A stretch of 64,000 bases of DNA, taken from the NCBI GenBank assembly GCA_031362565.1, contig JANLSU010000120.1, positions 138,872 through 202,871 of the forward strand. The letters run 5' to 3'. A program made the translations under genes and the position numbers. Position 1 is the first letter of the stretch, and the number at the start of each line of letters is the position of its first letter. The notes below the pieces were generated by a model. That model had not been told where the DNA came from and did no database searches. It was given only the letters and a program-made list of their open reading frames with translations. Source of the stretch: a bacterium. Its GTDB lineage: Bacteria > Krumholzibacteriota > Krumholzibacteriia > G020349025. Positions 7,067-9,463 of the stretch are shown here, piece by piece.

Positions 7067-8224
7067 TCAGAGAGTGCCGGCCTGCAAGGTGGCGCAAAAC
7101 TCCCCGAAGGGCAGAACTTCGATTCCATCGCGCGTCTTCAACCGATCCTTGCCGGTGTAGACAAGCAGGCTGCGACGTACGCCGGGAAGCACCTTGAAGG
7201 CACGCAGTCCCTTGCACATCCCGTCCGAGAACTTGCTCGACGATTTCACCTCGATCGCGACAATTTCCTTCCCCCGGACGAGTACGAAATCGACTTCGAT
7301 CGCGACGGAATCGCTCGACGCCCAGTAGAAGATTCCATCGTAGAGCCGGCGGTAGGCGTTGTACGCCCGTAGCACGGTAAAGACATACCCCTCGAAGAGC
7401 CGGCCGGCTTCCTCGCGCGACGGCACGCCCCAGGATTGCATCGCAGCTCGAGCCAAGCCACAGTCGACCCAATACAGCTTGGGCAACGCGCGTTCGCGAA
7501 ACCGCAGCTTGGCGTCGAACGCCGGGAGGCGCAGAGTAAGCAGAGTGTCCTCCAGAATCTCGAGGTATCCCTGCACCGTCGAGCGCGACACGCCAGCTTC
7601 GCGAGCGATATTGGAAGCGTTGATCACTTGCGCATGGGAGAGCGCCGCGACTGGGAAGAACCGTGAGAAGGCCGGCAGATTGCGCACCAGCGCTTCGGCC
7701 CGGATTTCCTCTTTGAGATACAGCTCGACGTAGGCGCGAAGAGTCTCGTCCGGTTCATCCGCCGCAACGACCAGCGCAATCGACCCGTAGCGCAGCACCC
7801 GCGGCAAGCTGAAAGCCTCCCCGAGTTCGTTCGGAGTCAGGGGGAAGAGCTCGCGTTTCGCGGCGCGGCCCGCCAGCAGGTTCGTTCCGGCCAACTTGAG
7901 TTTGCGAGCGCTCGAACCCAGCAGCGCAAAGCGCTGTTTGCGATCTTCGATCGCCCGGTGCACTTCGTTCAGAAGGTTGGGCAGGCGCTGGATCTCATCG
8001 ACAACGATCGTGGCCCCGGCCCGCTCGGCATTCAGTTTCAGCGCGAAGAGTTCAGGGTTGGACAAATAGCTCTGGAACACCTGCTCATCGAGCAGGTCGA
8101 TACGTGTCGCGTTCGGGAAGGTCTCACGCGCGACGGTGCTCTTGCCGACTCCACGCACCCCCAAGAGGAAGAAGCTGCCCTTGGGCGGCGCGAAGAGGCG
8201 CTTGAAAACTGGCCTGCTCACCAT
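7067..8224 (-). CDS. AAA+ ATPase (AAA_14) with DUF4143 and C-terminal PD-(D/E)XK-like motif
   Basis: Walker A GVRGVGKST, Walker B IVVDEIQ, LGSSA, LLAGRA, EVDFV...AIEVK. Confidence 0.9.
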   Translation of the reverse strand: MVSRPVFKRLFAPPKGSFFLLGVRGVGKSTVARETFPNATRIDLLDEQVFQSYLSNPELFALKLNAERAGATIVVDEIQRLPNLLNEVHRAIEDRKQRFALLGSSARKLKLAGTNLLAGRAAKRELFPLTPNELGEAFSLPRVLRYGSIALVVAADEPDETLRAYVELYLKEEIRAEALVRNLPAFSRFFPVAALSHAQVINASNIAREAGVSRSTVQGYLEILEDTLLTLRLPAFDAKLRFRERALPKLYWVDCGLARAAMQSWGVPSREEAGRLFEGYVFTVLRAYNAYRRLYDGIFYWASSDSVAIEVDFVLVRGKEIVAIEVKSSSKFSDGMCKGLRAFKVLPGVRRSLLVYTGKDRLKTRDGIEVLPFGEFCATLQAGTL

Positions 8225-8253: not shown

Positions 8254-8395
8254 AAGCTAGACGATTTTTGGAGGTCCACCCCGGGCAGCGCCTGGCACCC
8301 ACGGCCTACCGACATTGCCGTCCGCGCGGCCCGCGGCCCTAGAGCGGCAGCGAATCCGTGGAAGTGGAGGTCCCCGCGTGAGTATCGAACCCAAC

Positions 8396-8430
8396 TAAAG
8401 AGGGCCCCGCGGCTTGCGCCGCGAGGCCCC
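8396..8430 (-). terminator. Rho-independent terminator-like hairpin
   Basis: Minus strand GGGGCCTCGCGGC-GCAA-GCCGCGGGGCCCT followed by CTTT. Confidence 0.65.
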
Positions 8431-8517
8431 ACGGAATGAGGTCCAGTGTCGACGGCGGTGGGTACCCAAGTAGTTGGGGAAAACCCGCCTAAACGCCATG
8501 AACGCTGGGGCTCCCTG

Positions 8518-8562
8518 CTACAGGGCCGCCACCTCCACTGAGCCGCATCGGTCTAAACTCAC
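8518..8562 (-). CDS. Candidate 14-aa peptide MSLDRCGSVEVAAL
   Basis: GTG start 7 nt after the GGAGG core of an extended SD (AGGAGGTGATCCA); TAG stop lies in a CCCTG-TAG-CAGGG hairpin. Confidence 0.3.
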   Translation of the reverse strand: MSLDRCGSVEVAAL

Positions 8563-8842
8563 TGGATCACCTCCTCGATCGCCCTACCCAAATCGGCGGG
8601 ACCCAACCCACCCAGTTCCTCGAGCCGGGCTCGCTGTCGGAACCGTCACGGTGCCGCGCGGGCAGCCCGTGAGTTTTGTATCGAGATCGAGTCTAGCAAG
8701 AATCAACTCGGGACTCCACAACCGGAAAAGCACCCGGCTCGCCCGGCGCCCCGGCACCCTGCCCCTCCCCCCTTGGCCTGGACGGCCGCCTGCACCATCC
8801 TCCACGGGCCCTTGATCGGTCGCCCCCACGAAGGAGAATTCC

Positions 8843-9463
8843 ATGCGGTTCCAGTCACGCCACGGGTTCTGTGTCATCGTGTTGGCCCTGGGTTGCTCGA
8901 GCGCCGCTTTGGCCCAGGACAAGCCTGCACAAGCGCCGCCCATGAGCGCCGAGGAACAGGCGATGCAGGCGAAGTGGATGGCGTTCATGACCCCGGGCGC
9001 GGAACACCAGATCCTGGCCGGCCGGGTTGGAATGTGGAACTCGAAGGTCACCATTTGGGAGGCGCCGGGTGCACCACCGGTTTCCGAAATGTCGAAAACC
9101 GAGGTGAAGGCCATTTTCGACGGCCGTTACTTCGAAGACACGACCACCGGCAACTTCATGGGGATGCCGTTCAACGGCCGCGCACTCATGGGCTACGACA
9201 ACCTGAAGAAGAAATTCTTCACTACCTGGATCGACAACATGGGCACGGGCATGATGGTCGCCGAGGGCACGTACGACGCCGCGACCAAGACCATTACTTT
9301 CGCGGGCGACCATCCTGACATCATGGCCGGCAAGTACCGCCCGTCCAAGTCGACCGAAAAGTGGGTCAGCGCCGACGAGTGGCAGATGGAGATGTTCAAT
9401 CAGGGACCCGACGGCAAGTCCTGGTGGAAGTGCATGGAGATCGTGTACACGCGCGCCAAGTGA
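8843..9463 (+). CDS. DUF1579-family secreted protein
   Basis: AAGGAG RBS, signal peptide, TPGAEH..L, FDGRY, GYDNLKKKF.TTWIDNMGTG, MEIVYTR. Confidence 0.85.
   Translation: MRFQSRHGFCVIVLALGCSSAALAQDKPAQAPPMSAEEQAMQAKWMAFMTPGAEHQILAGRVGMWNSKVTIWEAPGAPPVSEMSKTEVKAIFDGRYFEDTTTGNFMGMPFNGRALMGYDNLKKKFFTTWIDNMGTGMMVAEGTYDAATKTITFAGDHPDIMAGKYRPSKSTEKWVSADEWQMEMFNQGPDGKSWWKCMEIVYTRAK

Follow-up and report, generated by a model that had tools for sequence, protein, structure and literature searches.

The 64,000-nucleotide (nt) window analysed here, part of contig JANLSU010000120.1 from a Krumholzibacteriota assembly (GCA_031362565.1), carries between positions 8706 and 8392 of its minus strand an element that we regard, with moderate confidence, as a gene standing on its own, whose product is a compact and structured small RNA (sRNA) of about 280 nt (roughly 8672-8394). 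All coordinates are positions in the window, and the gene is read on the minus strand. A putative sigma-70-type promoter, read from the sequence at 8706-8677, has a -35 box TTGATT (8706-8701), an 18-nt spacer and a -10 box GATACA (8682-8677), and gives a predicted transcript start at about 8672-8669. The 5' end of the RNA holds hairpin P1 (TCACGG ... CCGTGA, 8672-8646), followed by P2 (CGGTTCC / GGAACTG, 8645-8613), which encloses an inner hairpin CGAGC-CCG-GCTCG, and by P3 (GGTGGG / CCCGCC, 8612-8595) with a conserved loop UUGGGU at 8606-8601. An 18-nt linker (8594-8577), in which GGGC at 8583-8580 is a candidate PK1 strand for GCCC at 8630-8627 inside P2, leads to the extended Shine-Dalgarno sequence (SD) GAGGAGGTGATCCA at 8576-8563. 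This contains the 13-mer AGGAGGTGATCCA (8575-8563), which runs directly into the GTG start (8562-8560) of a mini open reading frame (ORF) of 14 codons (8562-8518, stop TAG at 8520-8518) with the product MSLDRCGSVEVAAL, as the preliminary description of this stretch had seen.

The 5' strand of the long helix P6 lies inside this ORF (8541-8526), with P6a TCAGTG at 8541-8536, a tandem G-A at 8535-8534 and P6b GGTGGCGG at 8533-8526; a second GGAGGTG (8536-8530) falls within it. Hairpin P7, CCCTG-TAG-CAGGG (8525-8511), has the stop codon in its loop. The variable hairpins P8 and P9 (8510-8464; in the window CCCAA-CTAC-TTGGG) are enclosed by P6, and are followed by ACCCA (8463-8459), the 3' strand of PK2 and proposed partner of the P3 loop. 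The P6 3' strand (8458-8443) consists of P6b CCGCCGTC (8458-8451), G-A (8450-8449) and P6a CACTGG (8448-8443). The gene ends in an intrinsic terminator (8430-8392), for which a terminator scan confirmed a 13-bp stem with a GCAA loop (8430-8401), followed by CTCTTTAGTT. The hairpins listed in the preliminary description (TCACGG/CCGTGA, GTTCC..GGAAC, CCCTG-TAG-CAGGG and CCCAA-CTAC-TTGGG) are all present, and so is the terminator that it reported.

The element is a conserved RNA gene, found once per genome. Searched by BLASTN with 8390-8700, 41 related genomes yielded 18 with a match, the own genome being one of them; the 18 belong to 5 of 8 families. An exact pattern was found in 76 of 208 genomes of the same phylum, always in one copy, with 0 matches for the reversed control. 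A covariance model, R1, of 145 positions spanning P2, P3, SD and ORF, has exactly one match in the own genome and one match per genome in 66 of the 125 good-quality genomes of the phylum; in good-quality genomes of families f3 (0/26), f7 (0/4) and f9 (0/1) it has no match. In contigs representing one genome per species, at least 119 loci match a pattern derived from the conserved core, three of them false positives (two unrelated sequences and a repeat of the clustered regularly interspaced short palindromic repeats, CRISPR, type), which leaves at least 116 further genomes. Record titles of these loci name Ca. Eisenbacteria, Ca. Krumholzibacteriia, Latescibacterota, Vicinamibacterales and other Acidobacteriota, and Thermoanaerobaculia; a few name Fibrobacteraceae, Verrucomicrobiia or Rickettsiales, possibly loose labels of metagenome-assembled genomes. 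Conservation across phyla excludes chance structure.

Four divergent variants (L045, L112, L116 and L023) keep the SD, the frame of 14-15 codons and a GGUGGC:GCCACC helix. The two inspected fully, L023 and L045, have no recognisable P1-P3 domain; L112 and L116 were grouped with L045 by their peptides. The flank of L045 also contains an FMN riboswitch (RF00050, 90.3 bits, 682-848 minus), unrelated to the RNA family.

Structure was tested on a 127-sequence alignment by a column-pair scan and a pair counter, with 500 shuffles and slid controls. Over the whole structure, 92.1% of cells pair, compared with 86.7% when shuffled, and two-sided change is seen in 391 cells (96 +/- 12 when shuffled). None of the 500 shuffles (0.167) reaches the covariation score of 0.272, and the slid controls stay at or below 0.084. 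The window sequence alone folds modestly better than its shuffles (z = -2.35).

Helices P2, P3 and the long P6 are supported by covariation. In P2, all six pairs show two-sided change, with six standard pair types at 41:74, and in its inner helix pair 56:64 is 93% paired (CG 78, UA 12, UG 21). P3 is 98.6% paired, with two-sided change in 4 of 6 pairs (82:92 is GC in 78 and AU in 49). P6 is about 15 positions long and joins codons 8-13 of the ORF to the downstream strand. Its P6a part is 90% paired and has three pairs with two-sided change, 200:333 being GC 48, UA 37 and AU 26, and 202:331 being UA 54, CG 47 and UG 26. P6b, GGUGGCGU with ACGCCACC, is 98.9% paired, also with three such pairs. 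Between the two lie opposed G-A/G-A, observed in 102 and 85 of the 127 sequences and compatible with a tandem sheared G-A motif. As for the other helices, in P1, 3 of 4 counted pairs show two-sided change and 92% of cells pair, the MAFFT register being imperfect there; P7 pairs in 84% of cells with little covariation; P9 is 85% paired in the family and P8 is unalignable.

The P3 loop UGGG and the CCCA 5' of P6b are complementary and invariant in 127 of 127 sequences. Through this PK2 contact the P3 loop UUGGGU probably pairs with ACCCA, docking the 100-nt 5' domain (P1-P3) beside P6. In variants L045, L112 and L116 no P3 was recognisable in the upstream stretch, and a local hairpin, GUUGGG..CCCAAC, stands in L045 in place of the P3-loop contact of the main family; we see both as fitting the PK2 pairing. 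For PK1 (GGGC:GCCC), the two strands are swapped between the window (GCCC...GGGC) and relatives (GGGC...GCCC).

Two pairings around the start codon did not survive this comparison. A hairpin P5, proposed by RNAalifold, was discarded, since covariation joins its 3' strand to the distal strand. The preliminary description had let the downstream segment CACTGGACCTC (8448-8438) fold back over SD and start codon; among the 127 relatives only 63% of cells in this pairing are paired, and at two of its six positions most relatives do not pair. The CACUGG at 8448-8443 is the 3' strand of P6a, and its covarying partner is the CAGUG of codons 8-9, not the one at the start codon. The earlier assignment went astray because both places read CAGUG in the window. 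The GGCGG..CCGCC pairing described earlier is peculiar to the window; in the family the CCGCC strand is part of P6b.

The docking site is exceptionally long, as had been claimed. The 16S gene of the same genome ends in ..GCGGCTGGATCACCTCCTTTCT, and therefore AGGAGGTGATCCAG in the RNA is a 14-nt complement of the tail (14 Watson-Crick complements, plus one possible G-U). This check also confirms the 13-mer as the exact complement of the 16S 3' end. The 13-mer has two copies in the 5.41-Mb assembly, one at this locus and one as the complement of the 16S 3' end. About 0.16 extra copies would be expected by chance in such a genome, so that one is not very unlikely, and it is conservation, rather than rarity of the 13-mer, that excludes a chance origin. 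In members collected without using it, GGAGGTGATCC is invariant or differs by 1-3 nt. The column-pair scan and the pair counter found no conserved pairing partner for the SD in the alignment.

Two further ribosome-related elements were considered and rejected. The second GGAGGTG had been described as lying inside the ORF, where it is indeed present; as a free second SD it was dropped. It sits within P6, with a paired G, then opposed G-A, then paired GGUG, and genus g65 has AAAGG or UAAGG in its place, and for both reasons we take it as a structural element and not as a second docking site. An internal anti-SD after P7 was suggested by CCUC or CUCC within about 12 nt past the stop in 80 of 127 members, but it is missing from the window, and in the few members inspected by eye it pairs locally within P8.

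Two side observations concern the SD. In G046 and G047 (loci L157 and L158, family f6), GGGAGGAGCGGCC replaces GUGGAGGUGGCG and zero spacer bases lie between GAUCC and GUG; both nonetheless retain the 14-codon frame, with the peptide MSSIGSGFAGGAAL. The false positive L128 is a CRISPR-like array whose direct repeat GTGCTCTCCGCGCGAGCGGAGGTGATCC ends in GGAGGTGATCC.

As for transcription, 67 of 126 members carry TTGAC in the 80 nt preceding P1, compared with 4 of 126 that carry it in a control stretch, and 63 of the 76 occurrences are found at -50 to -41 relative to P1. This positional count was used in place of a first promoter expression (TTGnnn-N16-19-TAnnnT), which matched only 25 of 126 members. 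Many members have TTGACA-N17-TAgAAT-like pairs, some with T-rich tracts further upstream. A strict promoter scan called no site in the window, and the promoter-like pair there is a candidate by its sequence. A crude terminator test (hairpin plus T-run) was passed by 81 of 125 relatives. The RNA is also present in RNA libraries: three studies contributed metatranscriptome contigs (197, 205 and 178 nt) that fall within 8438-8660 at 95-99% likeness, except for 8 loose letters of the third.

The RNA belongs to no catalogued family. Rfam 15 at gathering score gave no match in the window, and no match to the RNA itself in 14 diverse relatives, for which the FMN riboswitch beside L045 was the sole match. 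The preliminary description had kept in view a known family such as 6S RNA; the 6S model RF00013 has no match in the window, and the ordinary 6S gene of this genome lies on another contig (71.4 bits). ARAGORN found no transfer RNA or transfer-messenger RNA (tmRNA) gene in the window, and the genome's tmRNA gene is also on another contig (RF00023, 177.5 bits). The family is not described in the literature searched, including the accessible parts of PMC11109978 and of PMC6943124, the latter only treating 16S oligonucleotides. In E-value mode, the window gave CC2171 at 24 bits, BjrC68 at 17.8 bits (terminator only) and two chance matches.

CC2171 (RF01867) is an sRNA of Caulobacter and other Alphaproteobacteria, reportedly known since 2008 and catalogued as non-coding. 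Its match scores 24.2 bits, against a gathering threshold of 75 (E = 0.005-0.009). The two RNAs share an identical 16-nt AGGAGGUGAUCCAGUG, formed by the extended SD and GUG; CC2171 is a free-standing small RNA, as the present one appears to be, both have a GC-rich terminator, and the Rfam consensus of CC2171 has a long-range helix just past the start codon, much as P6. In contrast, only SD/start and terminator align, and the internal helices of the model do not. CC2171 begins about 15 nt before the SD, without the 100-nt P1-P3 domain, and its ORF is longer and variable, whereas the present frame has 14-15 codons, with codons 8-13 forming P6. The two are also found in different phyla. Common descent is neither shown nor excluded.

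A scan of metagenome contigs for the CC2171 motif gave at least 119 loci (L176-L294). Among the matches listed, the GUG opens an ORF of 14-29 codons in 114 of 119, the remaining 5 including truncated loci, and the ORFs have mostly 25, 24, 22 or 21 codons. The search motif fixes MSH as the first three residues of the peptides; the next is mostly C, and a mid-frame Trp occurs in most of the printed ones. Of 16 sampled loci, 7 pass the CC2171 threshold, and NCBIfam assigned no family to 16 of the peptides. Many of the loci have an internal CUGGAUC, complementary to the SD tail GAUCCAG. CC2171 looks like a second family on the same plan, with a perfect SD and GUG, a short frame that enters a long-range helix, and a terminator. 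In Methylorubrum, CC2171 was confirmed by northern blot, and the accessible part of that report identifies no condition that affects it (bioRxiv 10.1101/2022.01.24.477521). An ORF in CC2171 is not mentioned in the accessible literature searched, which excluded the original 2008 description.

Other known RNAs are alike in part. Dual-function sRNAs with tiny ORFs, such as SgrS/SgrT, Spot 42/SpfP and SR1/SR1P, are independent small transcripts, structured and apparently translated, as is predicted for the present RNA. They have a defined conserved peptide and an ordinary SD, whereas the present RNA has a drifting N-terminal half, a maximal SD and, unlike them, a frame that overlaps the main covarying helix. 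The leader peptide peTrpL has 14 residues. According to the accessible parts of two reports, rnTrpL/peTrpL of Sinorhizobium is a short terminator-ended RNA with a very short ORF that acts in trans (PMC6614838, PMC7298713). In these features rnTrpL resembles the present RNA as we read it; it is, however, a Trp attenuator upstream of trpE(G), with Trp codons, whereas the gene downstream of the present RNA varies and the mini-ORF lacks a run of regulatory codons. Finally, 6S RNA and tmRNA are likewise single-copy and structured, housekeeping-type RNAs engaged with the core expression machinery, as the present RNA may be. In tmRNA the stop codon of a short frame lies within a hairpin loop, with pseudoknots on either side; unlike the present RNA, tmRNA has no SD.

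Conservation extends to the borders of the frame (start, lengths changing only by multiples of three, in-frame stop) but not to the peptide at codons 2-6. An ORF of 14-15 codons is present in 134 of 137 motif loci (16 codons in L010, by a 3-nt insertion), the other three being the false positives. The start lies 21 nt from the helix landmark in 127 loci and 24 nt from it in 8; spacings of 22 and 23 nt occur in false positives only, never in true members. The first in-frame stop comes 6 or 7 codons past the landmark in 134 of 137 loci, in the P7 loop, while stops in the other two frames fall at scattered positions. The stop triplets counted are TAG 89, TGA 27 and TAA 11. All 18 BLASTN members keep the ORF, as do all 20 model members that fail the exact pattern (17 by script, 3 by eye; 14-15 codons). 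Among the pattern-free members, one starts with ATG and others with TTG, and some have altered SD tails. The start is in phase with the landmark in 36 of 36 of them; the fuzzy match to the landmark may slip by 6 nt without affecting phase, and the gap from SD to start varies from 0 to 4 nt. Length changes that are not multiples of three therefore occur just upstream of the start, and not inside the frame.

The peptide, by contrast, drifts: there are 93 distinct peptides among 127 members, amino-acid entropy at codons 2-6 is 2.1-3.2 bits, and third positions there are no more variable than first and second ones. The C-terminal residues G-S/L-V/A-E-V-A-S are conserved and coincide with P6. These data bear on the possibility that the locus is a small-protein gene, with the peptide of 14-15 residues as the product and the RNA structure merely tuning its translation, which we consider unlikely. 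It would account for the conserved start, frame and stop, the very strong SD and the conserved C-terminus; moreover, the strongest covarying helix position, 200:333, is the synonymous third position of a Ser codon, and the look-alike CC2171 has its own ORFs with a largely common opening, part of it imposed by the search. It fits poorly with residues 2-6, highly variable and with no third-position relief, and with the conserved residues coinciding exactly with P6, where changes are compensated on the non-coding partner strand. Divergent members alter the C-terminus together with the helix (G046 and G047), no conserved partner gene lies nearby, and a covarying 5' domain of 100 nt is hard to explain in a plain messenger RNA.

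The reading we favour, with about an even chance of being correct, is that of a trans-encoded structured RNA selected to be ribosome-bound and briefly translated, in which translation of the mini-ORF unzips the core fold. Ribosome binding, translation, remodelling and any downstream effect are what we infer from the sequence pattern. An SD matching the whole single-stranded 16S 3' tail would capture the 30S subunit on a landing platform made of SD, GUG or UUG start and a 21-nt spacer without conserved pairing. The ribosome would then translate the mini-ORF, unzipping P6 (from codon 8 on) and P7 and releasing the tertiary contact. Termination would follow after 14-15 codons, at the stop in the P7 loop and at the junction closed by P6, and the RNA would then refold. 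The selected feature would be the act of ribosome binding and translation, not the peptide. Its effect could be strand exposure, timing of decay, sensing of ribosome availability or ribosome sequestration. The proposal in the preliminary description, a ribosome-binding sRNA or a conditionally translated micropeptide RNA, was thus in the right general area, with a fold-back mechanism that has to be given up.

Several observations weigh against this translated-RNA reading. Binding and translation rest throughout on the pattern of the sequence. In thermodynamic ensembles the SD has an unpaired probability of 0.28, compared with a mean of 0.32 for the molecule; an exposed SD is thus not predicted, although covariation does not contradict it. 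The PK2 strands are invariant and therefore beyond the reach of covariation testing, and PK1 is tentative, coming from one swapped lineage only. At the C-terminus, selection on the RNA helix and on the peptide cannot be separated in these sequences. The pattern sets demanded K-T-G, 21-24 nt and GNGGAGGTG, so their statistics on start codon and motif are biased; only 38 members, from BLASTN (18) or the covariance model (20), are free of this bias. The RNA is not universal in its phylum, families f3 and f7 being without an R1 match. A fourth metatranscriptome contig, from run X13, covers 8551-8677 and continues beyond 8677 with 139 nt of unlike sequence, and the RNA-library contigs in general indicate presence only and do not prove transcription, strand or ends. 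On the RNA strand, the loose end of the X13 contig (window 8591) looks like the SD region from a diverged relative that carries the GGUGGUCC variant, and hence that library contains more than one relative of the RNA.

A second alternative shares the ribosome with the translated-RNA reading. By analogy with 6S RNA and RNA polymerase, the RNA might be a decoy for the ribosome or its 30S subunit, parking ribosomes at a perfect initiation site before a stable helix and so shrinking the free pool, with translation of the mini-ORF as the release step. We find this doubtful. The maximal and nearly invariant SD, the platform of about 40 nt without conserved pairing before a strong helix that begins 21 nt past the start codon, and the unconserved peptide would all suit it, as would a single-copy gene with near-consensus -35 boxes, T-rich upstream tracts in several members and presence in metatranscriptomes. 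A decoy would require near-stoichiometric levels, however, no copy turned up in two entire families of the phylum, and the idea is based solely on analogy.

The neighbourhood speaks to a third alternative, a cis-acting leader working as a ribosome-dependent attenuator of the downstream gene. The layout of short ORF, alternative helices and terminator fits, and in the window an ATPase-like ORF on the same strand begins 175 nt downstream. Across 92 downstream and 35 upstream loci searched with Pfam, however, the largest flanking ORFs are not the same from clade to clade and are found in both orientations (opposite in about half of the 92), and no constant partner gene was found, many of these longest ORFs having no Pfam match and being perhaps spurious. 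Since the flanking genes vary, the RNA is not the leader of a particular gene. The codon table gives no run of regulatory codons in the ORF, and the covarying P6 is no antiterminator of the terminator stem, so that we hold a leader to be highly improbable. In the window itself, the downstream ORF (7067-8224, minus strand, 385 residues) has a P-loop-like GVRGVGKS near its N-terminus, and the upstream ORF (8843-9463, plus strand, 206 residues) is divergently oriented.

Least credible of all are a type I toxin messenger with SD fold-back, for which in the window alone CACTGGACCTC can pair with SD and start region, and chance structure: the fold-back does not covary in the family, type I toxins are hydrophobic membrane peptides of typically 20-60 residues whereas the printed peptides of 14-15 residues have no long hydrophobic stretch, and chance is excluded by the conservation already described.

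The RNA is a new, widely distributed family with an unusually direct link to the ribosome, and its most conserved element, a full complement of the 16S tail, points directly there. Large, conserved, single-copy structured RNAs of no known function are rare and have often been a source of new biology, and this one is common to poorly studied phyla of soil and sediment: Acidobacteriota (Vicinamibacteria, Thermoanaerobaculia), Ca. Eisenbacteria, Krumholzibacteriota and Latescibacterota. The covariance model and alignments make annotation of the family feasible in thousands of metagenome-assembled genomes. For CC2171, the shared 16-nt motif and the short ORF, not reported in the literature searched, offer a testable lead. 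With a frame that is conserved, a peptide that is not, and the frame placed inside the main helix, the family is a clean natural test of translation as a conformational switch. At its most speculative, and with a rather low chance of being right, the finding may point to a "6S RNA for the ribosome", a widespread housekeeping class including the present family and perhaps CC2171 that captures 30S or 70S ribosomes. Its members, if this improbable picture held in detail, would combine a perfect mimic of an initiation site with a platform before a stable, tertiary-locked helix and would be discharged by translating a throw-away frame of 14-15 codons. Such discharge would parallel the escape of RNA polymerase from 6S RNA through a short product RNA, and the RNA would set or report the pool of idle ribosomes.

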